The notes beneath the pieces are model-generated. The model worked only from the letters and a program-made list of their open reading frames with translations. It had not been told where the DNA came from and did not search any database. From a virus (taxonomy: Duplodnaviria; Caudoviricetes), in IMG/VR virus record IMGVR_UViG_3300035145_002598, positions 1-52,785 of that record: 52,785 nt of DNA. One strand, given 5' to 3'. Made by a program: the position numbers and the translations under genes. Below are positions 1 through 52,785 of this stretch, one piece after another (position 1 is the stretch's first letter; every line of letters starts with the position of its first letter).

Positions 1-26
1 CAACGAGAGCAGACGAGGAGATACAG

Positions 27-659
27 ATGCTCGATACTAAAAACGACGACGTCGTCTCAGCCGACGCATTGACGGAGGCGCTCGACGCTCTCTCGAAAGC
101 GATGCGTAAGGACGACGAGATGGACAAAGGCGACGAGATGCAGCGCGACGACGATCGCCAGATCAACCTCTTCGACGACGACGAGATCCTCGAGGACGAG
201 GGCGACATGCCCGCGGACGACGAGATCATCATCGAGGAGGAGGACGAGATGGACAAGGGGCGTATGTACGCCGACGCGATCAAGGCGCTCGCAGAGAACA
301 GCGACCGCGTGATCGGCGACATGGAGAAGCGCCTCGACGCTGTCATGAAGGCGCTCGACGCGATGATGACCGAGATGAAGGCGATGCAGGGCGACCGCGC
401 TGAGATGTCGAAGAGCCTGAACACGCTCCTCGCTCAGCCCAACGCACCCCGCGCCGTCGTCTCCGCGCCCGTCGCGCCCGTCGCCCAAGCCCCCGCAGGA
501 CCGACTCGCGGGGACGTGATCCGCAAGGGTCTCACGATGCTCCGCGACGACGCGGACAAGCTCACCAATACGCAGCGCGGACAGATCCGCAACGCGATCG
601 CACAACTCGAGGCGGGCGTTCCTGTGTCCGCTGTATCTCACATCATCGACGCAGAGTAA
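27..659 (+). CDS. Acidic, helical protein upstream of the major capsid gene; probable scaffold or head-assembly protein
   Basis: GAGGAG RBS; very D/E-rich N-terminal half, coiled-coil-like middle, Pro/Ala linker; directly precedes the capsid gene. Confidence 0.5.
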   Translation: MLDTKNDDVVSADALTEALDALSKAMRKDDEMDKGDEMQRDDDRQINLFDDDEILEDEGDMPADDEIIIEEEDEMDKGRMYADAIKALAENSDRVIGDMEKRLDAVMKALDAMMTEMKAMQGDRAEMSKSLNTLLAQPNAPRAVVSAPVAPVAQAPAGPTRGDVIRKGLTMLRDDADKLTNTQRGQIRNAIAQLEAGVPVSAVSHIIDAE

Positions 660-25808: not shown

Positions 25809-25827
25809 ACTTTTTTAACATTGTATC

Positions 25828-25856
25828 TTGACACCTCGAGCGGGGTGTCTTACTGT
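25828..25856 (+). promoter_or_regulatory. Sigma70-type promoter upstream of the SSB gene, with an overlapping inverted repeat
   Basis: TTGACA-N17-TACTGT; GACACC...GGTGTC inverted repeat across the spacer; AT-rich dyad just upstream. Confidence 0.6.
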
Positions 25857-34445: not shown

Positions 34446-36107
34446 CTAGTGTGTCGTGTAATTGCCCTGAAGCGCCTCGCCCCACCAGATATCGAGCCCG
34501 TCGTCCGCCTCGTCCGCGTTGAGCACGTCACCCCGTTCGTCGTAAATCGCGCCCGTCGAGTCGACATAACTATGCGCGAAGCGGTCCCGCCGTAACACGC
34601 TGTGAGCGATCCACAGCGAGAGGACCGTGTCGTCATGTTTCTCTCTGCCGAGCCCCCAGAGCTCCGAGATCAAAGGCTCGATCATTCGGCGATCGTGCTC
34701 GGTGCGACTCGGGAGGATGACTTTCCCGTTTTCAAAGAGCACCGAGAGCGACGCGACACCGCTCCACGGGTCCGCTTTTTTCGCGCCCGTGGTCAGGTGT
34801 GGCACGATCGGGAGGTCCGTCGATTGCCGGAGCCCGACGTAGTGCATCTCGCCGAACGCGTTACGCTCGACCGCGATACTCGAGACGCGCCCCCTGAAGC
34901 GGTTGAACTCCTCGATCACAGCGGTGCGGAGCTGCGCGGGCGTGAGCCCTCGCCGTCTAAACATCCCGAGGAGGTAGTGATCGCCGGTGTCCAAGTCGCG
35001 CGCCCACGTCGTCCCGACCGTGTAATCCGTGTCTCGCGCTTCCGCGTCGCGTACTGATTGGACGAGCGAGAAGTCCCAACCTTGCACGATCTCGAGGCGC
35101 TCTACGTATGGCGGGATCTCGTACATCGAGAGCTCGGAGCCTCGAGCCTTCGCGTCGCTCAACCACTCGAACCGAAACGCGCTCGCGCTGTCGTCCTGCA
35201 CTTGGTGCTGAAACTCACGCGCGAAGAGCTGCGCGCCCATCGAGCGACGCTCTCGCAGGAGGTACTCGATCGGTCTCTCTTCGGGCCACAGCACGCGCGC
35301 CTCTCCTTGTATAGAGACACCGCAGATCACCTCGCGCCCGTCGCGCGTCTCGGTCTCGTACGCGTAGCTCTCCGGCATCTGCGCGACCGCGGGGTCCTCG
35401 ATCAGCGCCCACGAGGGATCATTGATCATGTCCCCGTACAAATCGTCGTAATGTTTACGCGTCCCGATGACCGCGATCAAACCCCCACGCGACAACATCG
35501 GGAGCACCGTCGCTTTAAACCATCTTTTGGTCTTCGCTCGCTGCGCGCTCGTGTGACAACTCATGTCACTCTCCAAGTCATCCGCGAGGATGAGGTCGAA
35601 GTGAGCTCCGGTCACAGCGCCCCCGCTACCGATCGCCGTGATCGTAGGATCGACGCTCTCGAGCTTGCGCGGGACATACACTTGCGTCTGTGTCCACGGC
35701 GTCTCCTCAGACTCGAACGGGGTGCAACCGCGCGCGGGATCGCTCGCCCAATCCGCGACGATGCGCTCCGATCGTAGCAGCGCTTTGACGCGCCTCATGC
35801 GCTTCTCAGCCTGCGACGCGCTCTCGCAGATCCAGAGGATACGGACGTCTCGATTCAAGCAGATCGCGCGTACTGCGTAAGTGATGGCAGCCTCGGTTTT
35901 GCCGTGGTCGCGTGGCGCGAGTACGAGCTGCCGTCCCTTGTCTCCCTGTTCGCGCGCACCTTCCCACGTTCGATCGAGTTGATCGAACCAGTTCGAGCGG
36001 TGCGACGCGTAACGCATCCCGCAATAGTACGTATCGTAAAACACGGGCGACACCGAGCTGAGCGCTCGTCGCTCGATCGCTGACGCGGGTAGTAATGGGC
36101 GTGACAT
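34446..36107 (-). CDS. terL: Terminase large subunit
   Basis: APRDHGKT (Walker A), GGAVTGAHFDLILADD (Walker B), IGTRKHYDDLYG, nuclease motifs QGWD, DYTV and KHDD. Confidence 0.92.
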   Translation of the reverse strand: MSRPLLPASAIERRALSSVSPVFYDTYYCGMRYASHRSNWFDQLDRTWEGAREQGDKGRQLVLAPRDHGKTEAAITYAVRAICLNRDVRILWICESASQAEKRMRRVKALLRSERIVADWASDPARGCTPFESEETPWTQTQVYVPRKLESVDPTITAIGSGGAVTGAHFDLILADDLESDMSCHTSAQRAKTKRWFKATVLPMLSRGGLIAVIGTRKHYDDLYGDMINDPSWALIEDPAVAQMPESYAYETETRDGREVICGVSIQGEARVLWPEERPIEYLLRERRSMGAQLFAREFQHQVQDDSASAFRFEWLSDAKARGSELSMYEIPPYVERLEIVQGWDFSLVQSVRDAEARDTDYTVGTTWARDLDTGDHYLLGMFRRRGLTPAQLRTAVIEEFNRFRGRVSSIAVERNAFGEMHYVGLRQSTDLPIVPHLTTGAKKADPWSGVASLSVLFENGKVILPSRTEHDRRMIEPLISELWGLGREKHDDTVLSLWIAHSVLRRDRFAHSYVDSTGAIYDERGDVLNADEADDGLDIWWGEALQGNYTTH

Positions 36108-36166: not shown

Positions 36167-36787
36167 ATGCCTTGCTTGACTCCGAAGATCGACCTCGCGC
36201 TCTGGTGCTTCACCGCGCTCATGAGCCTCCTACCCGCCGGAGCCTCTCCGAGCTATAGAGCGAAGTACACGCGCATCATGGAGGGGCGCGTCGGGCGCTG
36301 CGTCTCGATCGCTCACCGAGCCGAGCAGGAGGAGCTCGACCCGCTCATCGCGATCGCGGTCGGCGCCTACGAGTCAAAGTTCGACCCGACCGCGAAGTCC
36401 TCGAGGGGCGCCGTCGGGGTGATGCAGATGACCCCCGTCGCGTTGAAGACGTGGTGCTCGGCTCACTCGATCAGGACGGGCGCGCCGAGCTTCGACCCCT
36501 CGCTGTATGCGACACGAGAGGAGATCCGTCGCTGTGATCACATCGGGGCAGCGATTCGATATCTCAGATACGTCGACGCGAAAGCGCCGGACCTCTGCTC
36601 GGCGCTCGCGATGTACAACGGGGGGACGCGGGGGAGCTGCAGAGGTCGAGGGGGCGCTTATGGTCGAGCCGTCGTACGCTTGATGTCTAAGGCTCACGAC
36701 GAGGTCGTCGATCACTATCGTCTCCTCGACGTCATTCAAGCGCACTATGACCTAGACGACGAGCGCGCGGAGTGTGCGGACGACTAG
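36167..36787 (+). CDS. Lytic transglycosylase (SLT domain) with hydrophobic N-terminus
   Basis: YESKFDPTAKSSRGAVGVMQM (catalytic Glu, GxMQ), GAAIRYL, ALAMYNGG; start codon uncertain. Confidence 0.85.
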   Translation: MPCLTPKIDLALWCFTALMSLLPAGASPSYRAKYTRIMEGRVGRCVSIAHRAEQEELDPLIAIAVGAYESKFDPTAKSSRGAVGVMQMTPVALKTWCSAHSIRTGAPSFDPSLYATREEIRRCDHIGAAIRYLRYVDAKAPDLCSALAMYNGGTRGSCRGRGGAYGRAVVRLMSKAHDEVVDHYRLLDVIQAHYDLDDERAECADD

Positions 36788-38874
36788 ATCTCGCACGCAC
36801 CGCCAGGGCATGACGGCTCGAGCATCATGGTCGTGTTGTCGTCGTCCTCGATGACCGCGCTGTAGTCGATCGGCGTGTACTGCGCCTCGAGTTGACAGAA
36901 GTAGTTATACGCTTCGATCTTCGCCTCGCGGTGTGGGTCGTCCTCCGCGATCTCGTGGGGGAAGCGGATCGCTTGAAACGGGGCTTGAGGGTAGTCGTAA
37001 TCACCACTCGCGCCGAGCAACGACACGCCCCCGAACTCGGCGCGACCATTTAACAGCGTCTCCGCGACCTCATCCCACTCGTCCGCGCTCACGGTGCATG
37101 TGTTCGAGACGTTGTGTGTGAGCCCCTCGACGCTGTTCGAGCGCAGCGTGCCACGCTTAACCCACGTCCCTTGCACCTGCTTAACCCACGAGAGGAACTC
37201 CGTCGCGCTGAGGTCATCCCGTGTCAGCGCGTCCTCGGGTGCGGTGATCGCGAACGCGAGACAGAGGTCCTCGCCCGACGCGCTCCACACAGAGCGCTCG
37301 ACCGCTTGGGGGTTCGCAGAGGCGAACGCTTGAACGATCGGAGAGCTCGCGGGGACCTGTACCCGTCGGATGTAGCGTCGCGAGTGCTCCGGATGAACAC
37401 CGCTCGCGCATCCGAGGTTAACCGCAGCGTTACCCGACGGCTTGACGCAGGTGACTCGCGCGGGCGCTTTCGGGAGCCCGACGCGCTCCCACGACTGCTC
37501 GGCGGTGCGTCGCGCGATCGTGCTCAGGTGCTCGAGCAGGTGAGACTCGCGCGCCCAATCTGGAGCGGAGCCGAGACCCGTCAGAGAGACGCCGAGCAAA
37601 CACTCGCGCTCGAGGATCGCGCGCGTCGCTGTGTCTGCGAGATAGTCGCCGTCGGTCCCCGTGTAGGTCGCTTGGATCATGCCGAGGATCGTCGCGAGGT
37701 ACACCGCGCGCTCGGCGTCCTCGATCGTGCGCCACGCGCTCGCGTTGATCTCGCAGAGGTTGCAGAATTGGAACGCGGTCTCGTAGCTGTAGCCGTCGAG
37801 CTCCCACGCGTGACGGCGTGAGTCCTCGAGCATGTCGATCGTGTACTCGTCGACGATCTCGCCGTCGCGGCCCCTGATCAACGTCGGACACATCCCGATC
37901 TCGACGCACGGGTTGTAAGCGACCTCGAGGGAGTCGCACCAGATCACCGCGGGCTCACCATACGCGCGCGTCGCCCTGAAGATGCGATCGAAGTGTGCGC
38001 GCGCGTCGGGGTCGCTGCGTAGGATCATCGCGGAGATGTTCGCGCGCGCGCGATAGGGATACGCGTCCCACCAGTTCGGCGCGCTCTTGTATCCGATCAT
38101 CTCCTCGTCGTCGGGGCTGAACATGCAGAGCAGCGCAGAGCGACGCACGCCCCCCGCGAGCACGCAGTCCGCGAGGATGCACATCAGGTCGCTCGCGTCG
38201 ATGGGGCGTAGAGCGGAGCCCGCGCGCTCTTTAAGCAACGTCTCAGCGCGAGCGAGCGCGATGCGGAGAGGCTCGGGGCCGGGCGCTTTGCCTCCACACG
38301 ACGAGATCGGCGCGCCCTTCTCGCGAATCATCGAGAAGTCGAAATCAAAGAGCGGTGTGATGGGGTCCGTGTAGCTCCGCACGAGCCCCTTGAACGCGTT
38401 AGCCCATCCCTCGATCGTGTCGGGGATGCACCGATCGACGCGCGCTTTATCTGCGAGCGTGTCCTCGTCGAGGATCGGGGGGAGTTTGGCGACGTGATGC
38501 CTTTGCACTGAGTACCCGACGCCCGCTCCGCAGAGCAGAAGATAGAGCGCTTGTGCGAATCGATCCACGTGGTCCACGTAGCATGACGTGCAGTTGTAGC
38601 TCCGCGCGTGCTTTGCGAGCACCGCGTCCCCCCCGAACTGCAGCGAGCGCTGAGAGCCGAGGATGCGACGCTCGTTGATCAGGAGCTCGATCTCCTCGAG
38701 CTCGACGCTCAGCTCCTCGGCGCGCTCGCCGAGCTTGGTCCGGTGCATGCTCATCACGCGCGCGGTCGCTTCGCTCCACGTCTCCCGCCTCTTGAGCTCT
38801 GGTAAATAGCGCGCGTATTTCTGCGCAAAATTAAACGACGCGAGCGCGTCGCGTTGGGGGTTCTCAATCGTCAT
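36784..38874 (-). CDS. nrdJ: Class II (adenosylcobalamin-dependent) ribonucleotide reductase
   Basis: KYARY..RRETW, YNC, GGVRRSA, NPCVEI, CNLCEIN, TCVKPSG and C-terminal CPGGACEI; no NrdB gene in the window. Confidence 0.88.
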   Translation of the reverse strand: MTIENPQRDALASFNFAQKYARYLPELKRRETWSEATARVMSMHRTKLGERAEELSVELEEIELLINERRILGSQRSLQFGGDAVLAKHARSYNCTSCYVDHVDRFAQALYLLLCGAGVGYSVQRHHVAKLPPILDEDTLADKARVDRCIPDTIEGWANAFKGLVRSYTDPITPLFDFDFSMIREKGAPISSCGGKAPGPEPLRIALARAETLLKERAGSALRPIDASDLMCILADCVLAGGVRRSALLCMFSPDDEEMIGYKSAPNWWDAYPYRARANISAMILRSDPDARAHFDRIFRATRAYGEPAVIWCDSLEVAYNPCVEIGMCPTLIRGRDGEIVDEYTIDMLEDSRRHAWELDGYSYETAFQFCNLCEINASAWRTIEDAERAVYLATILGMIQATYTGTDGDYLADTATRAILERECLLGVSLTGLGSAPDWARESHLLEHLSTIARRTAEQSWERVGLPKAPARVTCVKPSGNAAVNLGCASGVHPEHSRRYIRRVQVPASSPIVQAFASANPQAVERSVWSASGEDLCLAFAITAPEDALTRDDLSATEFLSWVKQVQGTWVKRGTLRSNSVEGLTHNVSNTCTVSADEWDEVAETLLNGRAEFGGVSLLGASGDYDYPQAPFQAIRFPHEIAEDDPHREAKIEAYNYFCQLEAQYTPIDYSAVIEDDDNTTMMLEPSCPGGACEI

Positions 38875-39499
38875 CTCTCGTCTCTTCCGTATCATCACCG
38901 TCTCGCGTCGCGAGATACCTATCCGCTGCGCGTATCGCGTCATCTAGTACCGCGAGGAAATCAGGGAGCCCATGCTCGTTTAACGGCACGTGGACGCCTT
39001 GCACCTCTAGATCGTGCGCGTTGAGGCTCCGTTTTTTGTCATGCGTCCACGCACGATAATCGATGAGATACCACGCCTCGGCGATTCGGACAAGTACGAG
39101 CGCGAGGTGTCCCCAGTAGCTCATACGAGTGAGGTCCATCGCTTGCGCCTCGCCGACACACGACAGCGTGACGCGGTTTCCTTTGCGCGACTTGACCTCG
39201 AGGAGACCGGCGCGCCCGTCCGCTAACCAGAGCTCGAAATCGGGACCACTCGCTCCGATGTTCACCGCCTTAAAGAGCCCGTTTTTACCCGCTCCCCCGA
39301 CGCGCTTATAAGGCTCGTATCTCTTACGCACGCGCGCTCGTAAACGAGCCTCGTAGTGTACGCCGATCTGCTCGACTAGATACTCCGCGTTAGCGCCTGA
39401 GCGCTGCGCTTCGCGGTTTACGTCGCTCGTTCGATTGCTGCGTGATGGTGGTCGTCGTCTCATGTATGGGGCGTACTCTCTGCGTCTGCGTCGTGTCAT
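38864..39499 (-). CDS. RecU-like Holliday junction resolvase
   Basis: GANAE...PDFE...LLEVKS PD-(D/E)XK pattern with RecU-like spacing; start uncertain. Confidence 0.7.
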   Translation of the reverse strand: MTRRRRREYAPYMRRRPPSRSNRTSDVNREAQRSGANAEYLVEQIGVHYEARLRARVRKRYEPYKRVGGAGKNGLFKAVNIGASGPDFELWLADGRAGLLEVKSRKGNRVTLSCVGEAQAMDLTRMSYWGHLALVLVRIAEAWYLIDYRAWTHDKKRSLNAHDLEVQGVHVPLNEHGLPDFLAVLDDAIRAADRYLATRDGDDTEETRDDD

Positions 39500-39564: not shown

Positions 39565-40221
39565 ATGTTCAATGAATACGATACGCGCTCGCCGGTCATC
39601 GCCCTCGAGGGGAATATCGGCGCGGGGAAGTCGACGCTCGCGAAATACGTGCGCCGATATTACCCGTCGTGTCACGTCATCGACGAGGCAGAGAGCGCGC
39701 TCATGAGCGCGTATTCGCGCAATCCGGAGAGGTGGGGGGCGCTCGTACAGATTGACCTCCTCACGCAGAGAGCGACCGCGCTGAGACTCGCGCATCGGCG
39801 CGCGCTGATGAGCGACGGACCCGTGATTCTGGACCGCTCGATCGTGGGGGACCGCGCTTTCGCTCGCGCGAATTGGGCGCTCGGTCGTATCAGCGCGATC
39901 GAGTATACGATGTGGGAGAACCTACACGAGGAGCTGATGAAATCCACACCCGCGCCCGACATCGTCGTCTACCTGGACACGGACGTGAAGCTCGCGCACG
40001 AGCGCGCAGAGCAGAGGGATCGACGACAGCACAGCCTCGACTACCTCGAGGAGCTCGCGCGGGAGCACGTCGCAGCGCTCGATCACATCCGGTCGCACGG
40101 GGTCCGCGTCACGCGTGTTAAATGGGGTCACTATCCGTTACATGAGTATCACGTTCACGCCGATAATCTGCTCTCTAGGATCATGAAGGAGCACGAGGGA
40201 GCCGTGATCGACGATCTCTAA
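39565..40221 (+). CDS. Deoxynucleoside kinase family protein
   Basis: IALEGNIGAGKST, LDRSI and PDIVVYLD motifs. Confidence 0.88.
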   Translation: MFNEYDTRSPVIALEGNIGAGKSTLAKYVRRYYPSCHVIDEAESALMSAYSRNPERWGALVQIDLLTQRATALRLAHRRALMSDGPVILDRSIVGDRAFARANWALGRISAIEYTMWENLHEELMKSTPAPDIVVYLDTDVKLAHERAEQRDRRQHSLDYLEELAREHVAALDHIRSHGVRVTRVKWGHYPLHEYHVHADNLLSRIMKEHEGAVIDDL

Positions 40222-40374
40222 GTACGCGGATTCGTTGGTGTTCTAGTGTCTTGTTAAAACTTTTTAACAAAGTACTTGTGTTACTTTGTGATCTGTGGCA
40301 TATGTTTACCACGAGTCGGGGACGACCTCGAAACACGGTAAAACGAAACAACGAAACAACGAACGGAGAACACA

Positions 40375-41796: not shown

Positions 41797-41885
41797 GCGA
41801 TGCGATACTCGAACATACTGTGTTGACGGTCATCACGCTCGTGATCATCGCGTATCTCGCTCGCGGACTCGATGGGAGGCGATGA
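41793..41885 (+). CDS. 30-aa single-TM microprotein (not in the ORF track)
   Basis: GTGA overlap upstream and ATGA overlap with thyX; MSDAILEHTVLTVITLVIIAYLARGLDGRR. Confidence 0.5.
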   Translation: MSDAILEHTVLTVITLVIIAYLARGLDGRR

Positions 41886-42556
41886 TGCGCGTCTCCCTCT
41901 ACACTGGACAGGGTTACGTTGAGCTCGTCTCCTCGATGGGGAGCGATGCGACACCCGCGCGATCCGCTCGAGTCTCGCTCGACAACGACACCGCAGACTC
42001 GACACCCGAGAGGGACGCGAGGCTCGTGCGGTATCTCGCCGAGCATGAGCACCTCTCGCCTTTTGAACACTGCGTCGCGACATTACGAATCAAGGTCCCG
42101 CTGTTCATCGCGCGTCAAGTGATGCGTCATAGGACTTTCGCGTTCAATGAGGTGTCGCGCCGATACACGGACGAGGGCGTCGAGCTGCTCCGGATGGATT
42201 CGCTGCGCAAGCAGCACGACACGAGGCTCCAATGCTCGACGGATGAGGTGATCGAGGATGAGGAGCTCGAGGCGCTCGTCGAGGACTCCCAGATGCGCGC
42301 GCTCTACGCGTACCGGCAGATGTTGAGCGCGGGGGTCGCTCGAGAGCAAGCGCGCGCGGTGCTCCCTCAGTCCATGATGACGACGTTCTGGATGAGCGGG
42401 AGCTTGAGAAATTGGGCTCACTTCCTCCGGCTCCGGCTCGACTCGCACGCGCAACCCGAGGCGCAGGAGCTCGCGAGGGGTGTCGCTTCGATTCTCCGCT
42501 CGCTCTATCCCGTGTCGCTCGACGCGCTGCTCGGTGAGGGAGGGAGCGATGAGTGA
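41882..42556 (+). CDS. thyX: Flavin-dependent thymidylate synthase
   Basis: HLSPFEH, RQVMRHRTFAFNEVSRRY (RHRx7SxR), EQARAVLP, HAQPE. Confidence 0.95.
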   Translation: MMRVSLYTGQGYVELVSSMGSDATPARSARVSLDNDTADSTPERDARLVRYLAEHEHLSPFEHCVATLRIKVPLFIARQVMRHRTFAFNEVSRRYTDEGVELLRMDSLRKQHDTRLQCSTDEVIEDEELEALVEDSQMRALYAYRQMLSAGVAREQARAVLPQSMMTTFWMSGSLRNWAHFLRLRLDSHAQPEAQELARGVASILRSLYPVSLDALLGEGGSDE

Positions 42557-43010
42557 TAAACATGTCGGGCAAAGGATCGCGATCGCGCACCTCATCGCGC
42601 GCTCGTCTCCCTGCCCGCGCGCCCAAGTCGGCGCGGTCATCTTCCATCCTGGCAGTTGGGCGATCGTGTCCGACGGGTACAATGGACCGCCGAGGGGCGG
42701 GGGGCATCTGTGCGGGGGCGACGTGTGTCACCGGACGGAGCGGGGCGTCGCTTCGGGCGAGCGCTGCGAGCTCGGATGCCACCACGCGGAGACGAACGCG
42801 CTGATGAACGCTCTAAGGCACGGCGCAGCTACAATGGGCGCTTGGCTCGTGTCTACGCGCGCCCCGTGTCTCATGTGCGCTAAAGCCGTACATCACGCGG
42901 GGATCACGCGCGTCTATTGCCCGCCAGAGGAGGAGGGCGAAGCCGGAGACGGCGAGGGTACGAGATACTTACGACGGCACAAGGTCGAGGTGCTCTTCTT
43001 CGAGGGTTGA
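42549..43010 (+). CDS. dCMP deaminase family protein
   Basis: RSSPCPRAQVGAVI, GYNG, HAETNA, PCLMC. Confidence 0.9.
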   Translation: MSDKHVGQRIAIAHLIARSSPCPRAQVGAVIFHPGSWAIVSDGYNGPPRGGGHLCGGDVCHRTERGVASGERCELGCHHAETNALMNALRHGAATMGAWLVSTRAPCLMCAKAVHHAGITRVYCPPEEEGEAGDGEGTRYLRRHKVEVLFFEG

Positions 43011-43112: not shown

Positions 43113-44102
43113 TCACTCAAAGAGGCTTAGCTGATCGCAAGCGCTCGACGTTTGACGCTCGACGCTCTGCGCTGCTGCGCTTGAGGGTTTCGAGCACATA
43201 GGGGAGCGCGTATCCGCGCGCTTTAAGATTCGCGCGATCTGATTCACAGCGTACGCGCCCCCCTTGCTCGTCCGATATCCGCGACGCGTGAGCTCGTCAG
43301 TGATCGCGCGGAGCGAGAGCCCCTTCTCGCGTAGATCTTGGATCACGTAGACGAGTTGCGGGTGGAGCTCGTTCAATGAAGGACGAGCGCGATGAGGCTT
43401 GCGCGGATTCACGTTCGGTGAGCGTGGCTTACGCTTGGGACGCGTCACCTCGATCCCCGTACACCAACGGCGTAACGTCGTCCCGCTTGGTGCTGATCCG
43501 CTACGCGCACGAATCCCCTCGCGTTTACACGCCTCGTGTAGACGCGTGAAGCTGAGACCCTGAGCGCGGAGCTCGCGGGCGCGCTCGATCTGCGCGCGCT
43601 CCTCCTCGTTGGGGACGATGTGTCCGTCGACCTCGCGGTATCCGAGAGGGACCGTCCCTGTACGCTCTCCGCGCTCGCGCTTCGCTCTGAGTGTCGCGCG
43701 GACGCGACGAGAGAGGAGCGCTTGCTCGTACTGCGCGACCATGTCGAGCATCGAGCGGAGGAGCGCGGACTCTGGCGACGCGTCCGTCTCTGCGTCGAGT
43801 GTGATGAGGCGCGCCCCCACGCGCTCGATGTGACGCCCGGTGAGCGTGTTGTCCATCGCGTCTCGACCGACGCGATCGCGCGCCGACGCGAGGATCGTGT
43901 CACCCGCTGAGAGGACGTTGAGGAGCTCACCGAAACCAGAGCGCTTGACCGCGGGAACTCGACCGCTGCATGTGTCAGAGAACACGCGAGAGACGTGCCA
44001 CCCCTGCGCGGTCGCGTGTGTCTCACACTGCGCGCGTTGTCTCTCGAGGCTCGTCTCTTGTCGCGGTGTGCTCCTGCGGGTGTAGATGTATACGTGTGTC
44101 AT
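43113..44102 (-). CDS. Serine recombinase (resolvase-type catalytic domain plus two recombinase-type DNA-binding modules)
   Basis: YTRRST..QETSLERQ, DTCSG...RSG, DRVGRD, G.VPLGY; ATG 44102 with GAGGAG RBS. Confidence 0.88.
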   Translation of the reverse strand: MTHVYIYTRRSTPRQETSLERQRAQCETHATAQGWHVSRVFSDTCSGRVPAVKRSGFGELLNVLSAGDTILASARDRVGRDAMDNTLTGRHIERVGARLITLDAETDASPESALLRSMLDMVAQYEQALLSRRVRATLRAKRERGERTGTVPLGYREVDGHIVPNEEERAQIERARELRAQGLSFTRLHEACKREGIRARSGSAPSGTTLRRWCTGIEVTRPKRKPRSPNVNPRKPHRARPSLNELHPQLVYVIQDLREKGLSLRAITDELTRRGYRTSKGGAYAVNQIARILKRADTRSPMCSKPSSAAAQSVERQTSSACDQLSLFE

Positions 44103-44546
44103 CGGCTCCTCGTCTCTCCGTTGGTTGTGTTTGTTAAACCGATAACACACCCCGCGCGACGAGGCAACGGTGAGCGATGAGGCGACGGGGCGCTTATGGT
44201 CGAGCGGTGAGCGTCGGAGCTCAGCGACACACGACGCGCTCACACACGCGCGCTCGTTGTCGATGGTGTGAGGGACGACGCGCTCGCAGAGGTGCGAATT
44301 CTTGCGATCACGCACTCCGGCCTCGCACACGCGCCCGCACGCGCCCACCCTCGCCTCCGCGATCCGCAGCCCCTCGAGGTCATCCCCCGCGTCTACCTGG
44401 TTCTCTGAGACAAGCTCGTCGAGCGCTCCCGCGATACGCGGATCGATGGAGCTCGTCGTTCGCCGGTCCACGTCTCAGCGTTCACTCTGGAGCGCTTCGC
44501 GCAGCTCTCCGGAGGTGCGTTTCGCGATTCGCGATTTACGCGTTTA

Positions 44547-44830
44547 GGTGTCGACGATTTCTCGCCACCTCTCGACACCTCGCTCGACACCACGCTGAAA
44601 CCCCCACGCGTTCGGCGTTCTGCGTTTAAATGGTGTCGAGGTGTCGAGGTTGTGGAGTTGAGCGGAGAGAATACGAAAACGGGTCTCCTCTTTTCTGTTT
44701 ACTTCTAACAATGTTTCCCCAGAACTCCACACTCTCGACACCTCGACACCAAAACACGAAATAATCGTTACTTATTACATACTTACGTGTGGTGTCGAGA
44801 AGGTGTCGAGAGGTGTCGAGAGGTGTCGAG
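44547..44830. repeat. Array of GGTGTCGAG 9-mers in both orientations forming nested inverted repeats
   Basis: Exact copies at 44571, 44583, 44734, 44742 (reverse) and 44632, 44640, 44791, 44802, 44812, 44822 (forward); 44632-44659 and 44723-44750 form a 26/28 inverted repeat. Confidence 0.9.
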
Positions 44831-44843
44831 AACATTTTCGACG

Positions 44844-44882
44844 TTCTAACCTTCGATATTCGATCATTACCGAAGGTTAGAA
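44844..44882. repeat. Perfect 12-bp inverted repeat in an AT-rich tract
   Basis: TTCTAACCTTCG-N15-CGAAGGTTAGAA. Confidence 0.85.
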
Positions 44883-44951
44883 ATCGAAACTTGTTTTCGT
44901 AGTAGTTACGCATACTTACGTCGCGCGGGGGCTCGATTTCACCAAATTTTG

Positions 44952-48426: not shown

Positions 48427-48618
48427 TCAACGGTGATCGAGGATCCGGTCGTTCAGCTCCTCGGGCTTCGGTGGCTCGGGGTCGTCGTCCTCAACGTCGA
48501 GGGTGTCGTCGATGTCCTCCTCGTCGAGATCGTCGAGCAGGTCCTCGAGCTCGGGGTTCGTGGGGGGCGCGACCCTGCGGGGCGGGGTGATGTGTTGAGC
48601 GAATCGGCGTCGTATCAT
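48427..48618 (-). CDS. Small, highly acidic protein
   Basis: AAGGA RBS; LEDLLDDLDEEDIDDTLDVEDDD tract. Confidence 0.5.
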   Translation of the reverse strand: MIRRRFAQHITPPRRVAPPTNPELEDLLDDLDEEDIDDTLDVEDDDPEPPKPEELNDRILDHR

Positions 48619-48660
48619 GGTCGTATCCTTTGAACTTGGAATCTATGGAGAGAGTAACAA

Positions 48661-48873
48661 ATGAACACAGAGACAGAGATAAAACTATGGGCGAAGATCG
48701 TGCTCCCCACGGTCGGCGATCCGGTCGCGGAGCGCGAGGCGATCAAGCTGTATCACGACACGCTCCGCACGTTGAGGGAGGTAACGCGCGCGCTGAGCTC
48801 ACCAGTCGCGACCACGCGCGCGCGTTTCGTGTCTGCGCTCGAGGGTGAGCGGACGGTGGAGGGTGACGAATGA
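48661..48873 (+). CDS. Hypothetical protein, first gene of the repeat-protein operon
   Basis: GGAGAG RBS; ATGA-coupled to the next gene. Confidence 0.55.
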   Translation: MNTETEIKLWAKIVLPTVGDPVAEREAIKLYHDTLRTLREVTRALSSPVATTRARFVSALEGERTVEGDE

Positions 48874-49268
48874 CACCCGAGCAGATCTACAACGCGCACG
48901 CGAACGAGCGACGCAAAGCGCGACGCGCGAACGAGACCGAAGAGGAGCGCGAAGCGCGTCGCGCCAAACGCCGAGCGTATGATCGAGCGCGCGCGAAGGA
49001 GCGCAACGCGCGACGCCGAGAGCGTCGAAGGGAGATCATCGAGACGGAGACCGCGCGCGAGCGCTCAGCGCGTAAGGAGCGAGAGCGCGCGTATGAGGAG
49101 CGTCGACGCGCGGAGCGGACGCCCGAACAACGAGAGCGGATCCGCGCTTATCAAGCGGAGTACAGACGCCGACGCAAGGAGACGGAGACGCCGGAGGAGT
49201 ACCAGGCGCGCAAAGACCGCGCGAACCTGCTGCGCAGAATCAGATACGCGATGAGGAGCGAGACATGA
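48870..49268 (+). CDS. Arg/Glu-rich 23-aa (STPR-like) repeat protein 1
   Basis: ETARERSARKERERAYEERRRAE / RTPEQRERIRAYQAEYRRRRKET / ETPEEYQARK... Confidence 0.7.
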   Translation: MTPEQIYNAHANERRKARRANETEEEREARRAKRRAYDRARAKERNARRRERRREIIETETARERSARKERERAYEERRRAERTPEQRERIRAYQAEYRRRRKETETPEEYQARKDRANLLRRIRYAMRSET

Positions 49269-50062
49269 GCCGACGCAAAGAGACCGAAGAGGAGCGCGAA
49301 GAGCGTCGCCTGTACCGCAGGATCATGTATCAGCAGTACATCGAGAACGAGACAGAGGAGCAGCGCGAGCGGAGACTCGCGCAGATGAGAGAGCGCAAGC
49401 GTCTGCGGACTCAGCGCGAGACGCCGAAGGAGCGCGCGAGGCGACTCGAGAAGCACGCGCTTCACGCGCGGGTCAAGTACGCGCTCAACCGCGACGAGCT
49501 CCAGGCGTATCACCGCGAGCGCTACCAGCGCTTGAGCGAGGAGCAGTATGAAGCGTACCTCGCGCGCAACCGCGCGAGCCGGAAGCGTCGACGCGAGGAG
49601 GAGACGCCCGAGCAGCGCGAGGAGCGACTCGCGAAGCGTCGCGCTAAGTATCACGCGAAGAAAGCAGCGGAGCGCAGATCGAGCGAGCGCGAGCAAGCCG
49701 ACAAGCGAGGCGCGCGGGTGGAGACCGAAGAGGAGCGCGAAGCGCGACTCGCATATCGTCGAATGGCGCGCAAGGTCGCGCTCGAGATGGAGACCGCAGA
49801 GCAGAGGGAGGAGCGACTCGCGAAGCGTCGCGCGCGCCGAGCGGAGCGCACAGCGCGAGAGACCGAGGAGCAACGCGAGCGCAGACTCGCCTCGAGCGCG
49901 GAGCGGAGACGCGCGAAACGCGCCAACGAGACCGAGGAGCAACGAGAAGCGCGACGCGCTAAGCGCCGAGTTGCGAACATCGAGGAGACGCCCGAGCAGC
50001 GCGAGGAGCGACTCGCGAAGCGTCGCGCTAAGTATCACGCGAAGAAAAGGAGCGAGACATGA
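49265..50062 (+). CDS. Arg/Glu-rich 23-aa (STPR-like) repeat protein 2, about ten repeats
   Basis: Repeated ETxEQRExRLA... units at mostly 23-aa spacing. Confidence 0.75.
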   Translation: MSRRKETEEEREERRLYRRIMYQQYIENETEEQRERRLAQMRERKRLRTQRETPKERARRLEKHALHARVKYALNRDELQAYHRERYQRLSEEQYEAYLARNRASRKRRREEETPEQREERLAKRRAKYHAKKAAERRSSEREQADKRGARVETEEEREARLAYRRMARKVALEMETAEQREERLAKRRARRAERTARETEEQRERRLASSAERRRAKRANETEEQREARRAKRRVANIEETPEQREERLAKRRAKYHAKKRSET

Positions 50063-50316
50063 TGCAGACACGAGAGGAGCGTCGCGCGTATCTGCGCGAG
50101 TACATCCAGCGCCCGGAGGTGATCGCGCACCGTCGCGCGTGGCACGCGGAGCGACGCGCGAGGATGAGCGACGAGGAGCTCGCCGAGCGACGCGCGTATG
50201 ATCGGCAGTGGAGAGCGGATCGTCGCGCGAGGATGAGCGACGAGGAGCGCGCGGATCGTCGCGCTAAGGACCGAGAGTATCAACGGAGACGACGCGCCGA
50301 GAGGAGCGAGACATGA
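50059..50316 (+). CDS. Arg/Glu-rich 23-aa repeat protein 3
   Basis: MSDEELAERRAYDRQWRADRRAR / MSDEERADRRAKDREYQRRRRAE. Confidence 0.7.
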   Translation: MMQTREERRAYLREYIQRPEVIAHRRAWHAERRARMSDEELAERRAYDRQWRADRRARMSDEERADRRAKDREYQRRRRAERSET

Positions 50317-50660
50317 TCAAACAGGACCCGACGGTGTACGAGACGCCGATCAAGAGACGCGGAGCGGGGCGACCGCGTAAAGCGCAGAAGCAGACAGCGG
50401 AGGAGCGACGCGCGTATCAGCGCGAATACAACCAGCGCCCCGAGGTGATCGAGAGGCGTAAGGCGTGGATGCGCGAGTATCGGAGGATGCGGCGATCCAC
50501 AGAGACGCCCGAGGAGCGCGAGGAGCGCCTCGCCTACGCGCGCCTATGGAGAGAGGCGAAGCGCGCGAGCGAGACCGACGAGGAGCGCGAGGCGCGCCTC
50601 GTGCGTCAACGTATGTATCAGCGCAAATACAAGCAACGAAAGAAGGAGCGAGCGCAGTGA
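50313..50660 (+). CDS. Arg/Glu-rich 23-aa repeat protein 4 with an AT-hook-like motif
   Basis: KRRGAGRPRK; ETPEEREERLAYARLWREAKRAS / ETDEEREARLVRQRMYQRKYKQR. Confidence 0.7.
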   Translation: MIKQDPTVYETPIKRRGAGRPRKAQKQTAEERRAYQREYNQRPEVIERRKAWMREYRRMRRSTETPEEREERLAYARLWREAKRASETDEEREARLVRQRMYQRKYKQRKKERAQ

Positions 50661-50875
50661 CAGAGGAGCAACGAGAGAAGCAGCGCGCATACATGCGCGA
50701 GTACATGAGGAGGAAGCGGGCGACGGAGACGCCCGAGGAGCGCGCCGAGCGTCTGCGCTTCGACAGGATGCGCGCGCGGATCCGCTTAGACGCTGAGACA
50801 GAGGAGCAGCGCGAGCGGAGACTCGCGAAATGTCGCGCGTATTACCACGCTAAGAAGAAGGAGACGCAACGATGA
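50657..50875 (+). CDS. Arg/Glu-rich 23-aa repeat protein 5
   Basis: GTG start in a GTGA overlap with AAGGAG RBS; three 23-aa units. Confidence 0.65.
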   Translation: MTEEQREKQRAYMREYMRRKRATETPEERAERLRFDRMRARIRLDAETEEQRERRLAKCRAYYHAKKKETQR

Positions 50876-51105
50876 GCGATCCAGTGAACCACCCCTCGCA
50901 TTATCGCGGGGGCGTGTATGAGGCGATCAACGTGATCTCCGCGTGGAGGCTCGACTTCGCGCGCGGGAACGTGGTCAAATACATATGTCGCGCGGGGTTG
51001 AAATCGAAGGAGACGGAGCTCGAGGACCTGCTCAAAGCGCGGGAGTATCTCGATTTCGCGATCGCTCAGCTCTCCGAATCGGAGTCCGGCGAGTCCGACG
51101 ACTGA
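50872..51105 (+). CDS. DUF3310-family phage protein
   Basis: DPVNHPSHY...F.RGNVVKYICRAGLK...EDLLKAREYL. Confidence 0.85.
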   Translation: MSDPVNHPSHYRGGVYEAINVISAWRLDFARGNVVKYICRAGLKSKETELEDLLKAREYLDFAIAQLSESESGESDD

Positions 51106-51542
51106 GAGGGGAGCCAACGAGAGACGGTCTCATCGAGCTCGACGCGCTCGGGTGACGGTCTCTCTCTGAGCTCGAGCGCGCTGAGTCGCTCGATGATCGC
51201 GCGCTGTAGATCCGTGATCATGTCGCGGTGAATCTGGAGTTGAATCTGCGCGTCCCTCAATCGGGCGATCAGCGCCTCGCGGTCCGCGTTCGCCTTGCCG
51301 AGCTTGTCGCGCAGCTCCTCGACTTCGCTCGGATCTCGACCGCTCGCGATCGCGAGCATCGACGAGATTGAGCCGGTGATGACGCCGAGAATACCCACCA
51401 ACACATCCCGATTCTGATCGACGATCGTGACGCGCGCGAGGAACACGACGAGCCCGACGACGAGCAGTAAAAAGAACACGGCGAACCACCAACCGCGTCG
51501 CGCTTTGTATTCGTCCAACTCCGTCACCTGTTCGCTCACCAT
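51066..51542 (-). CDS. Two-TM membrane protein with C-terminal coiled coil
   Basis: WWFAVFFLLLVVGLVVFLA and VLVGILGVITGSISSMLAIA; heptad tail; start overlaps the cyclase stop. Confidence 0.7.
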   Translation of the reverse strand: MVSEQVTELDEYKARRGWWFAVFFLLLVVGLVVFLARVTIVDQNRDVLVGILGVITGSISSMLAIASGRDPSEVEELRDKLGKANADREALIARLRDAQIQLQIHRDMITDLQRAIIERLSALELRERPSPERVELDETVSRWLPSQSSDSPDSDSES

Positions 51543-52363
51543 TGCTTAAACGCCTCTCTGATCGCTTCGACGGCGATCACGATATAATCGAACCAATCTA
51601 ACCAGGTCACGCCCCACAAGTGACGCCCATCTCGATTCGACATCCACGGGTATATCATAGCGAGAATGTAACCGACGCTGATCCAAGCGAGCCGATACGC
51701 GCTCCACAGCGCCCACTCCCTCCAACGACGATGACGCGCGCGCGATCGAATCGCTTTAGCGCCCCCGACGCGCTTCGCCTTCTCGTTACCGCGCGGAGGT
51801 TGAAGCGACTCGATGGTGTCGCCCACAGCGTACAGCGTGACGGGGTCTCTGACACCCTTGAATCGATAGAGCCCAACGCACGCGAAGCGCGTCCCCTTGG
51901 GCGTCTGTGGGTTCGTTCGATTGCGTACCGCGCGCATCGCGTCCCGCGTGAGGATGACTTGACCCGCTTCGCAGACGGACATCGCGCGCGCGGAGATGTT
52001 CTTCGCGACCCCCTCGAGCTCGACGGACTTCGCTCCGACGGCTGAGTAGAGCTCGTCCTGCGTAACCTCCACAATGTCCCCGTAATGAACGCCGATCCGC
52101 GCGTCGATCTTGACGCGTTGCGGGATCTGGGCTTGATAGTGAAGCGCGAAATTGAGCGCGTCGATCGGTCGCTCGAACGACAACAAGAAGCCGTCGCTCC
52201 TGTCGATCTCGCGCCCGTTGAATCGGTAGAGCAGAGAGCGCGCGAGCCGGTCGTGATATTGTAACCACGTCGCAGCGCGCATCGCCCCGACGCGTTGCAC
52301 GAACGCGGTCGAGCCGATCAGGTCGAGCAATACGATCGCGAGTCTGCGGTGCTTGAGCTCCAT
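51536..52363 (-). CDS. Class III nucleotidyl (adenylate/guanylate-type) cyclase domain protein with C-terminal membrane anchor
   Basis: IVLLDLIGST, DRSDGF, RIGVHYGDI, GVAKNISAR, GQVILT and GLYRFKGV; C-terminal hydrophobic helix; ATG 52363 with GAGGA RBS. Confidence 0.85.
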   Translation of the reverse strand: MELKHRRLAIVLLDLIGSTAFVQRVGAMRAATWLQYHDRLARSLLYRFNGREIDRSDGFLLSFERPIDALNFALHYQAQIPQRVKIDARIGVHYGDIVEVTQDELYSAVGAKSVELEGVAKNISARAMSVCEAGQVILTRDAMRAVRNRTNPQTPKGTRFACVGLYRFKGVRDPVTLYAVGDTIESLQPPRGNEKAKRVGGAKAIRSRARHRRWREWALWSAYRLAWISVGYILAMIYPWMSNRDGRHLWGVTWLDWFDYIVIAVEAIREAFKQW

Positions 52364-52383
52364 GTGTCCTCGATTCAGCGCGC

Positions 52384-52395
52384 GTGTGATACACT
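52384..52395 (+). promoter_or_regulatory. Putative late promoter (GTGTGATACACT) for the CHAP-like gene
   Basis: Same motif as 5518-5529 and 34431-34442; 29 nt upstream of ATG 52425. Confidence 0.5.
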
Positions 52396-52424
52396 CCACA
52401 TGATAACAGAGAGGAGCGTCACAG

Positions 52425-52785
52425 ATGGACGAGCACAACACCAGAGTCGAGAACTGTATCGCGCGCGCAGAAGACGCGCACGCGTTTAACGTCACCGAGC
52501 CCCCTCGCGGGTATTACGTCGATAAGGACGGCGTGATCTTGAAGAAGGGCGTGAGCGGATTCAGCGAGGTGTCGGGCGAGGACGAGTGTCACCGCGGAGC
52601 CGAGATCATCCGATACATCAACGACGGTCTCGGGTGGTCTAAAGAGGACCCCTACACCAACTCGTACAACCTGAAGATCGGCGGGTTCAGTTGGTGCGGA
52701 GCGTTCGCTGCGTGGTGTGACATCACGCTGAAAGCGGAGCTCCGTAAAAAAGTGATGCCGTCCACGTATCGCTTGTGGGAGTTCT
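52425..52785 (+). CDS. Partial gene running off the window; CHAP/NlpC-like cysteine amidase or peptidase, possible endolysin
   Basis: GAGGAG RBS; open to the window end; my translation MDEHNTRVENC...GGFSWCGAFAAWC contains the WCxxFxxW CHAP-type motif. Confidence 0.55.
   Translation, partial: MDEHNTRVENCIARAEDAHAFNVTEPPRGYYVDKDGVILKKGVSGFSEVSGEDECHRGAEIIRYINDGLGWSKEDPYTNSYNLKIGGFSWCGAFAAWCDITLKAELRKKVMPSTYRLWEF

Follow-up and report, generated by a model that had tools for sequence, protein, structure and literature searches.

Why does a Caudoviricetes phage carry, in a row, five genes for small basic proteins made of 23-residue repeats, and what might these proteins bind? The array lies at 48870-50875 on the plus strand of the window, by which we mean the whole 52,785-nucleotide stretch that was analysed (IMG/VR record IMGVR_UViG_3300035145_002598). 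A preliminary description of this DNA had likened the repeats to the STPR, a DNA-binding module that, like few others, lays single helices in series along the major groove. In the cited part of the structural paper on silkworm FMBP-1, the STPR is treated as essentially an animal domain, with Glu1, Thr/Ser2 and Arg9 as the hallmark residues of each repeat; FMBP-1 is described there as binding double-stranded DNA in the major groove, with about 4 bp per helix and a preference for AT-rich sites, and as reading it mostly by shape (PMC4856987).

The array comprises five back-to-back, translationally coupled ORFs, g1-g5 (Table 1). Each overlaps the next ORF via ATGA or GTGA, and an AGGAG-type ribosome-binding site lies 6-10 nt 5' of each start; these overlaps and binding sites at every junction bear out the earlier claim of five consecutive coupled repeat genes. 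The two flanking genes are joined to the array by ATGA as well, and the upstream one has an orthologue in the related phage locus L009 (dN/dS 0.23). We take g1-g5 to be genuine phage genes that are translated together and encode small, highly basic proteins built of STPR-type units. The ORF list also offers a longer GTG start for g5 at 50465; we prefer the start in Table 1, which couples g5 to the end of g4 and at which the orthologue in the relative L008 has an ATG. The AT-rich stretch at the start of the string of coupled genes is a possible promoter/operator region; the promoter scan gave no sigma-70-type match at this stretch, and the promoter and terminator scan as a whole gave nothing exceeding shuffles. 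No tRNA genes were found.

Table 1. Features of the STPR gene string and its borders (positions are those of the window)
Feature	Position	Strand	Remarks
AT-rich stretch	48608..48701		minimum 33% GC in 60-nt windows vs 62% genome mean
Upstream gene, 70 aa	48661..48873	+	stop overlaps g1 start (ATGA); no Pfam match
g1, 132 aa	48870..49268	+	net charge +18; divergent STPR-like
g2, 265 aa	49265..50062	+	net charge +30; 9 canonical and 2 degenerate STPR units
g3, 85 aa	50059..50316	+	variant units beginning M-S-D-E-E, 23-residue period
g4, 115 aa	50313..50660	+	basic N-terminal tail, followed by variant units and 2 canonical ones
g5, 72 aa	50657..50875	+	GTG start overlapping g4 stop; 1 degenerate and 2 canonical units
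DUF3310 gene	50872..51105	+	Pfam PF11753, 51.9 bits; ATGA-coupled to g5; ends gene string

The likeness to the STPR proved to be real. The Pfam profile PF21107 matched g2 with 48.1 bits against a gathering cut-off of 27, whereas the whole-protein scores of g5 (26.0 bits) and g4 (23.2 bits) fell just under the cut-off and no Pfam STPR match was obtained for g1 and g3; in a six-frame scan the matches over the cut-off fell in g2 and g5 (27.1 bits at 50672-50848). A search of 177,635 PDB sequences with g2 recovered a single match, silkworm FMBP-1 (5d23, E 5.4e-5). Among 1.84 billion representative proteins there were 34 matches, the best of them animal STPR proteins; ten were looked up, and all six that bore names were animal, one being titled 'STPR domain-containing'. 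An HMM built from 20 animal units was further used to score the phage proteins unit by unit, since whole-sequence scores against shuffles are distorted by the bias correction. It found five units of at least 10 bits in g2, two in g5 and one in g3, the best g3 unit reaching 16.6 bits; for these three proteins none of 300 shuffles attained the real best-unit score, and shuffles contained at most one unit of at least 10 bits. The g1 protein was not significant with this HMM, 35 of 300 shuffles scoring as high. Other resources were uninformative: no PHROGs family was found for g1-g5, PADLOC returned nothing for g2, g4, a cyclase-like gene and a 2TM gene, and the ESM Atlas placed g1 and g3 (scores 0.87-0.89) with unnamed clusters only, which are leads of no value.

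The periodicity of the proteins provides a further line of evidence. Both a 23-residue autocorrelation and STPR profile similarity, the absence of which had been named beforehand as grounds for abandoning the STPR reading, were found. Relative to 500 shuffles, the lag-23 signal has z=8.5 in g2, 6.7 in g3, 3.7 in g4 and 2.9 in g5, with an additional g5 signal at lag 46 (z=4.4), and it is absent in g1; E-T starts are spaced 23 residues apart in g2, g4 and g5. With unit HMMs trained by leaving one gene out at a time, each of g1-g5 outscored all 300 composition-matched shuffles. The five units quoted in the preliminary description are all present in the array genes; its count of about 20 units of 23 residues stands as 15 canonical E-T units (two in g1, nine in g2, one of which is shortened to 19 residues, and two each in g4 and g5) plus about ten degenerate ones, with the qualification that g3 has only variant units, bearing Met1, Ser2 and Arg9, and that the middle of g1 is degenerate. 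The proposed division of the unit into a constant and a variable half likewise holds, low entropy being found mostly at positions 1-10 and variability at 12-13 and 15-23. In the 14 full canonical units E1, T2 and R9 are invariant (entropy 0 bits), R6 is present in 13, and L10 and a K/R at position 20 in 11 each; positions 4, 5, 6, 7, 10 and 14 have an entropy of less than 1 bit, and 12, 13, 15-19 and 21-23 one of 2.1-2.8 bits.

Structure prediction with AF2 is consistent with one capped helix per unit. The g2 model (mean pLDDT 83.5) has 11 helices of 17-21 residues, separated by breaks of 2-3 residues at the E-T of every unit. Foldseek found no PDB match for this free, DNA-less model, as expected for an extended chain without a fixed tertiary shape, and pTM was 0.29-0.45 for the models of the array proteins. 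In g1, which combines canonical units at residues 22 and 106 with one or two degenerate ones and has a long R/E helix in its centre, helices were predicted at 3-20, 24-81, 85-105 and 108-131, the middle forming a single 58-residue helix. Stretches held in common connect the genes at the nucleotide level: 58 nt of g1 are 83% identical to one g2 unit, g3 and g4 share an N-terminal motif (82 nt, 80% identical), and the last unit of g5 has 33 identical nt in common with a g2 unit. The g2 gene itself looks like two blocks, both ending in one identical unit (66 nt, 100% identical at 49598-49663 and 49982-50047). The basic N-terminal tail of g4 contains a Gly-Arg-Pro core with basic flanks, which we take to resemble an AT-hook and whose core recurs in the L008 and L009 orthologues; Pfam gave no AT_hook match in g4 at E up to 10, which for so short a model is weak evidence either way.

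Several observations count against the STPR reading. The AT-rich preference of FMBP-1 (PMC4856987, in the part cited) sits uneasily with a phage of 62% GC; an array composition of 27% R and 19% E would also suit generic charged single helices; and, beyond the Pfam and animal-unit HMM results and the 58-residue g1 helix given above, FMBP-1 Y16 is retained in only 3 of the 14 units, with positions 13, 17 and 21 variable. Charge is nevertheless segregated along the unit. FMBP-1 contacts DNA through Arg6, Arg9, Leu10, Tyr16 and Arg20, with hydrophobic positions 13, 14, 17 and 21; the contact positions of the array units are 60% K/R and 2% D/E, against 17% K/R and 33% D/E at the remaining positions (Fisher p ~1e-14). 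We infer nucleic-acid binding from this segregation of charge, together with the STPR homology and the fusion of the same repeats to nucleases in other phages described below, and put at roughly 0.7 the probability that g1-g5 encode STPR-type binders of double-stranded DNA; by analogy with FMBP-1 they would most likely bind in the major groove.

A first alternative is that they are non-specific polycationic helices, i.e. protamine- or histone-like condensers or coats, which might pack or protect the phage genome or inactivate the host nucleoid, their STPR likeness reflecting helix capping and no site selectivity. Such an account would suit the net charge of +8 to +30 per protein, the 33% K+R content and the co-translation of five paralogues with about 25 helices overall, as well as the mainly shape-based reading of FMBP-1 itself (PMC4856987, in the part cited). 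It would also suit the unit repertoire: when 201 distinct units were clustered by their C-terminal halves they formed one continuum of 152, with no discrete unit types, which weakens any simple recognition code. However, positions 11-23 are 88% identical between orthologues against 23% between paralogous units, a degree of conservation that mere filler does not require. The array genes are under purifying selection (dN/dS 0.16-0.39, similar to the 0.03-0.23 of neighbour genes), which for g2 (0.18-0.19) and g4 (0.16) is again more than filler needs; and most relatives have one two-unit protein of about 65 residues, which offers little for coating a genome. We therefore regard the polycation account as unlikely. 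As to whether specificity is set repeat by repeat, the preservation of unit-specific halves between orthologues is a point in favour, and shape reading by FMBP-1 (PMC4856987, in the part cited) and the continuum of units are points against.

The ligand might instead be RNA, the proteins serving antitermination, the control of translation or association with the ribosome. RNA is commonly bound through arginine-rich helices, and the 27% R composition would fit such a use. Yet double-stranded DNA is the ligand of the only homologue with a solved structure, other phages carry the repeats joined to domains of DNA endonucleases, and animal repeats are joined to Helitron transposase-type proteins. 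An RNA ligand hence appears quite improbable.

The wider distribution of the repeat bears on both its novelty and its provenance. As the preliminary description supposed, no published account of such an array in a phage was found in the literature searched, but the array is not a one-off, relatives being present in at least 79 other viral loci. The search for homologous arrays in viral metagenomes that it had proposed confirmed 87 of 374 candidate IMG/VR viral stretches as encoding relatives. Most of them belong to a single phage lineage (44-64% GC), in which a related phage has one to four such genes, most often a lone two-unit protein like that of L011, and PF21107 exceeded its cut-off in all five other viral records tested. 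In 35 of 74 loci the small terminase gene follows directly or after one intervening gene; in the window it is not adjacent to the array, so that the positional argument rests on the relatives. Many of the STPR genes also have a small acidic protein encoded next to them. Of 10 larger viral proteins that were scanned, two (L090, L094) carry the repeats joined to Endonuclease_7, and of 18 homologues two (P0047, P0048) carry them joined to HNH_3; P0030 has, by eye, an HNH-like tail. Comparison of the window's 30000-52785 segment with GenBank phages by megablast yielded no match, nor did g2, g4 or the L017 protein when compared by tblastn with 50,697 GenBank phage records, a search in which the low-complexity filter was on and may hide relatives. 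A census of prokaryote genomes gave 330 pattern matches and no confirmed case with g2 as query, and 220 matches and five confirmed cases with alignment A2; only two of these five again yielded an STPR-like ORF with the unit HMM. Within one phylum, a single genome out of 301 had PF21107, namely the centre genome itself.

Given the nuclease fusions, the array could be imagined as decaying leftovers, i.e. arms split from mobile homing endonucleases that persist as selfish or neutral, readily recombining DNA. Consistent with this, gene number and unit number differ between close relatives (L009 lacks g3, and its g2 lacks exactly one 23-residue unit, residues 199-221), and contigs from 3 of the 4 sequencing runs examined, out of 24 listed and none of them from RNA, join across g1. 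Against it, neither the array nor the genes next to it show a nuclease domain or the vestige of one, the frames are intact and under purifying selection, and the position is kept across a phage lineage that spans the whole GC range given above; we consider such an origin very improbable. That the genes are an artefact, chance frames in GC-rich repetitive DNA or the shadow of a true 306-aa ORF on the opposite strand, can scarcely be maintained: long shadow ORFs do occur on both strands, but it is the plus frame that has coupled starts with ribosome-binding sites at every junction, profile and structural homology and dN/dS far below 1, and homologues occur in phages of 44-50% GC.

Returning to STPR-type binding of double-stranded DNA, homology with FMBP-1 suggests how the proteins might work. 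In each unit the two residues E-T would cap a helix some 21 residues long, and the helices would fold upon double-stranded DNA, lying end to end in the major groove with about 4 bp each, so that the 11 helices of g2 might cover about 44 bp. The conserved N-terminal half (E1, T2, R6, R9, L10, R14) probably provides the cap and phosphate contacts, and the unit-specific C-terminal half would be turned toward the groove. The paralogues may have arisen by duplication, fusion and unit-level recombination in a lineage of marine-type phages, in which one to five such genes lie between DNA-metabolism genes and packaging or late genes. That gene position points, more weakly, to a role in late transcription or packaging, either as regulators that select DNA by site or shape or as architectural factors, which we put forward only tentatively. 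The five-gene array and its relatives thus seem to form a family of DNA-binding phage proteins that has so far gone undescribed.

If the proteins are ordinary regulators, their significance is modest. The STPR unit is a signature gene of a widespread, uncultured, marine-type phage group, in which it stands alone, in forms from two-unit 65-aa proteins up to a five-gene array, and it also occurs as a nuclease arm. It gives a named, testable fold to 'hypothetical' basic proteins adjoining phage packaging genes, and a natural series of units with divergent, presumably groove-facing halves that should be useful for understanding how STPR helices choose DNA. It also raises the question of the kinship of phage, Helitron and animal STPRs. 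In a bolder scenario, which we think improbable, the STPR would belong first of all to phages and mobile elements, animals having domesticated it later, and in this phage lineage it would form a rapidly reshuffled kit of major-groove readers, each helix taking about 4 bp. Units of 23 residues and whole genes would be duplicated, lost and exchanged, and the proteins thereby directed to new DNA sites; if true, nature would have in it a modular system of DNA recognition other than TALEs and zinc fingers.

Among known systems the closest is the STPR domain of FMBP-1 (PDB: 5D23, 5D2Q, 5D2S; PF21107) and its animal relatives, e.g. ZNF821. The exact 23-residue period, the invariant E1, T/S2 and R9, the retention of R6, L10 and a basic position 20, the single capped helix per unit (on the phage side an AF2 prediction) and the basic character of the proteins are common to both. 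However, animal STPR proteins usually have four near-identical repeats, with 60-80% identity in FMBP-1, joined to other domains (PMC4856987, in the part cited), whereas the phage proteins have 2-11 units, no other domain, five genes in a row, C-terminal halves that are only 23% identical between units, Y16 mostly replaced, and a GC-rich genome. Long tandem arrays like those of the phage proteins occur on eukaryotic Helitron-like transposases: P0004 and P0010 combine PF21107 with Helitron_like_N and/or DUF6570, and STPRs are among the captured domains in the cited part of the HELIANO listing (PMC11417382). Those arrays are eukaryotic and fused to or beside a transposase, unlike the stand-alone phage array proteins. 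The phage Endonuclease VII/HNH fusions place the repeat on phage genomes in a clear DNA-targeting context; they differ in having a catalytic domain and unrelated neighbourhoods, whereas the array proteins lack such a domain and are syntenic across the lineage.

Two further comparisons are of architecture. Like TALE-type and other modular repeat readers of DNA, the phage proteins have tandem helical units, which would run along the major groove; the residues that vary occupy set places in the unit, and the unit number shifts by exact units, as in the L009 g2. There is no kinship in sequence or fold: TALEs use two helices per base and a residue code, whereas the phage proteins have one helix per unit, probably spanning about 4 bp, and no discrete residue code is visible in them. 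With the ER/K single alpha-helix (SAH) they share an R/E-rich, highly helical make-up and the lack of a tertiary core; but the SAH runs uninterrupted, with neither a 23-residue period nor a capping box, whereas the predicted phage helices break at every E-T.

Independent sources agree in supporting an STPR-type assignment of the five consecutive genes g1–g5, as had been proposed in the preliminary description. The Pfam profile of this 23-residue helical DNA-binding repeat (STPRs, PF21107) exceeded its gathering cut-off of 27 bits in g2 (48.1 bits), with g5 (26.0 bits) and g4 (23.2 bits) just under it and no match to g1 or g3; in a six-frame search of the record the matches over the cut-off fell in g2 and g5, and none of 14 control genomes gave one. 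A phmmer search with g2 against 177,635 distinct PDB sequences returned a single match, silkworm FMBP-1 (5d23_A, E 5.4e-5), and a search of 1.84 billion representative proteins gave 34 matches at E <=1e-3; among ten that were looked up, the six named ones were all from animals (mosquito, bryozoan, spider ('STPR domain-containing protein'), amphioxus, mayfly and tick), and the other four were unnamed metagenomic proteins. An HMM built from 20 animal units recognized units at >=10 bits in g2 (five), g5 (two) and g3 (one), and for these proteins none of 300 shuffles equalled the real best-unit score or had more than one such unit; g4 was marginal (1/300 shuffles scoring as high) and g1 not significant (35/300). 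We include g1 in the family by paralogy, because it carries a 58-nt stretch 83% identical to a g2 unit and because leave-one-gene-out HMMs recognized each of g1–g5 from the units of the other genes, above all 300 composition-matched shuffles.

The repeat is defined by 23 residues with conserved Glu1, Thr/Ser2 and Arg9 (PMC4856987). Our unit HMM delineated 15 canonical units beginning with E-T (two in g1, nine in g2, one of these of only 19 residues, and two each in g4 and g5) and about ten degenerate ones, the M-S-D-E-E units of g3 among them; all five units quoted previously are present. Identity autocorrelation at a lag of 23 residues greatly exceeded 500 shuffles in g2 (z=8.5) and g3 (z=6.7), exceeded them in g4 (3.7) and g5 (2.9, and 4.4 at lag 46), and was absent from g1. 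The 14 full units all have E1, T2 and R9, most have E4 (13/14), R6 (13/14), L10 (11/14) and R14 (11/14), and entropy reaches 2.1–2.8 bits at positions 12, 13, 15–19 and 21–23, so that the description of the unit as a constant half and a variable half is correct. Modelled by AlphaFold2, g2 forms eleven helices interrupted at the E-T of every unit (mean pLDDT 83.5, pTM 0.29), a prediction of confident helices without fixed packing, and g1 forms four, one of them 58 residues long. Arg makes up 27%, Glu 19% and Ala 13% of the pooled proteins, whose net charges are +8 to +30 each. In FMBP-1, R6, R9, L10, Y16 and R20 contact phosphates, positions 13, 14, 17 and 21 contact the groove, each helix covers ~4 bp, and AT-rich DNA is read mainly by shape (PMC4856987). 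The corresponding contact positions of the phage units are 60% K/R and 2% D/E, against 17% and 33% elsewhere; therefore their basic face coincides with the known DNA face.

The array lies within a string of seven plus-strand genes, namely a 70-aa gene, g1–g5 and a DUF3310 gene, which overlap successively through ATGA or GTGA. The junctions g1/g2, g2/g3 and g3/g4 carry one common cassette, AGGAGCGAGAC-ATGA, encoding the C-terminal R-S-E-T of the upstream gene together with the ribosome-binding site and start of the downstream one, and because it recurs at three junctions, whole genes were probably duplicated along with their junctions. For g5 we prefer the GTG start at 50657, on account of its coupling to the g4 stop and because the orthologue in L008, another viral locus with STPR-like genes, starts with ATG at the equivalent residue.

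Features of the window and of related viral loci (L-numbers)
Feature	Position	Strand	Basis or content
g1; g2; g3; g4; g5	48870-49268; 49265-50062; 50059-50316; 50313-50660; 50657-50875	+	132; 265; 85; 115; 72 aa
Seven-gene string	48661-51105	+	
Junction cassette copies	49253-49268; 50047-50062; 50301-50316		last four codons R-S-E-T, ribosome-binding site, ATGA overlap
Acidic ORF	48427-48618	-	63 aa
AT-rich stretch heading the string	48608-48701		
Cyclase-like and 2TM gene pair	51066-52495	-	weak profile matches
Family A DNA polymerase	26623-28482		Pfam
Large terminase	34446-36107	-	Pfam
RNR-II-like protein	36784-38943	-	Pfam
ThyX-type thymidylate synthase	41882-42556		BLAST to annotated relatives
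dCMP deaminase	42480-43010		BLAST to annotated relatives
Serine recombinase	43113-44471	-	Pfam (Resolvase + Recombinase domains)
AT-rich intergenic region	44656-44925		270 nt
Palindrome copies	25769-25841; 40205-40322		TTAAA(A)C-TTTTTAA
Record ends, the record stopping inside a gene	52425-52784; 1-659		
Small acidic flanking ORFs in relatives	L039 3799-4041; L059 635-931		
Overlapping STPR-like ORFs	L013 23-205; 75-602		60 and 175 aa

The IMG/VR record (52,785 bases, GC ~62%) is classed as linear with an estimated completeness of 87%; most of its large proteins lack a Pfam family, and a DNA-level search with positions 30000-52785 matched no GenBank phage. It ends within a gene whose orthologue in L009 is 215 aa long and lies ahead of a portal-like gene of 866 aa, and the missing part (~13% by CheckV) probably lies at the record ends. 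An AT-rich intergenic region adjoins the serine recombinase gene; the phage may be temperate, with an attachment site in this region. Similar copies of a short palindrome, possibly an operator, promoter or terminator element common to both sites, occupy two of the eight AT-rich spots, both intergenic. The basic STPR string is closely preceded by an extremely acidic ORF that has an orthologue in L009. In relatives, STPR genes have small acidic proteins of 75–83 aa as direct neighbours, on the upstream side in 13 of 74 loci and on the downstream side in 11; a PHROGs family was not found for them, and a role as partners or antagonists of the basic proteins is possible. On the minus strand, a 319-aa protein with a hydrophobic tail weakly matches class III nucleotide cyclases (Guanylate_cyc 16.7 bits, below cut-off) and is followed by a 158-aa two-helix membrane (2TM) protein with a weak SLATT-type match. 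This pair, for which a PADLOC search was empty, is kept across the phage lineage (31/79 and 16/79 loci), and the 2TM protein evolves very slowly (dN/dS 0.03–0.08).

L008 and L009, both closely related to the window (g2 89% and 94% identical in global protein alignment), share its neighbourhood and differ in the number of genes. In L009, g1, g3 and the DUF3310 gene are missing, and g2 lacks exactly one 23-residue unit (residues 199–221); in L008, g2 is accompanied by a hybrid of 155 aa, part g4-like and part g3-like, and by two shorter genes. The syntenic but more distant L049 has two STPR genes; the four of L072 are succeeded by DUF3310 and by the minus-strand gene pair also present in the window. 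Two 66-nt stretches inside g2 are 100% identical and 33 identical nucleotides are common to g2 and g5, a pattern that indicates recent duplication or gene conversion. In three of four sequencing runs, metagenome contigs contain a joint omitting 427 nt corresponding to g1; with flanks of 30–55 letters and a threshold of 85% likeness, these joints weakly suggest natural presence and absence of this gene. Despite the turnover the array genes are under purifying selection (dN/dS 0.18–0.19 for g2, 0.16 for g4 and 0.39 for g5; 0.03 to 0.23 in neighbouring genes). Orthologous units are 94% identical at positions 1–10 and 88% at positions 11–23, against 75% and 23% for paralogous units; therefore the variable half of each unit is individually maintained, which argues for a function of these residues and against mere charged filler. 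The L013 ORFs overlap by ~130 nt in different frames, as do those of L014 and L015, and could reflect a frameshift, a programmed shift or a repeat-borne assembly error.

Homologous arrays, which the preliminary description had suggested seeking in viral metagenomes, were recovered there. A two-unit alignment query from small relatives yielded 374 candidate IMG/VR stretches, of which 87 were confirmed and 80 retained, and a more divergent query at least 595 candidates with at least ten confirmed. Of 89 viral loci, several from the same contigs, 84 contained STPR-like ORFs by the unit HMM, as did 74 of the 79 left after removal of duplicates; 57 loci have one STPR gene, 18 two, 7 three and 2 four, counts that include same-contig duplicates and a few overlapping ORF pairs, possibly frameshifts. 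PF21107 exceeded its cut-off in all five other viral records tested and in 9/10 selected proteins. The census is biased towards relatives of the query alignment, and the majority of its loci represent one lineage (GC 44–64%), which shares, among 79 loci, the small (47) and large (42) terminase, the cyclase-like protein (31), a DnaC-like loader (30), ThyX (30), SSB (29) and dCMP deaminase (22). The repeat is rare in cellular genomes: across 185,579 species genomes the alignment query gave 5 confirmed loci and the g2 query none, and PF21107 occurred in 1/301 genomes of one phylum, the centre genome itself. Among 18 homologues, three were annotated 'hypothetical protein' and the rest had no name.

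The STPR genes have a conserved position where DNA-metabolism genes border on packaging genes; counted over 74 loci, the small terminase is the first downstream gene in 14 and the second in 21. In many phages this boundary is the site of late activators or packaging helpers. In other viral contigs, STPR repeats are fused to Endonuclease VII domains in two of ten larger proteins scanned (L090, L094) and to HNH_3 domains in 2/18 homologues, and animal STPRs are attached to Helitron-type proteins (PMC11417382); every known partner domain acts on DNA. Together with the FMBP-1 structures, these partners make a major-groove mechanism most likely, in which each unit would fold into a helix on DNA, its conserved half providing the cap and backbone contacts and its unit-specific half facing the bases. 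As to the role, our tentative reading, at a probability of roughly one in three, is that the proteins regulate late expression or packaging or assist in them architecturally. Non-specific coating, opposed by the individually maintained variable halves, appears unlikely. The proposed code-like modularity, with specificity set repeat by repeat, is a possibility that is not yet supported. In its favour are insertions and deletions of exact units, the exchange of units between genes and the conservation specific to each unit; against it are the dependence of FMBP-1 on shape readout and the single continuum, without discrete types, into which 201 distinct family units fall (152 of them in one linkage cluster). 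Binding of the array proteins to RNA we regard as very improbable. Should the phage proteins, on the DNA-binding reading favoured here, share the AT preference of FMBP-1, the genome's eight short AT-rich stretches, among them the one heading the gene string, might speculatively be candidate targets.

STPR proteins occur mainly in animals according to a 2016 paper (PMC4856987), and the literature found under STPR with FMBP-1, phage and domain names comprised animal and Helitron work only, in keeping with the earlier statement that no description of such a phage array was known. New aspects are: 1) free-standing STPR proteins in phage; 2) lineage-wide conservation of their genes beside packaging genes; and 3) expansion to coupled multi-gene arrays, the present five-gene array being the largest seen. 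Compared with FMBP-1, the phage units retain all three hallmark residues together with R6, L10 and a basic residue at position 20; Y16 is present in only 3 of 14.
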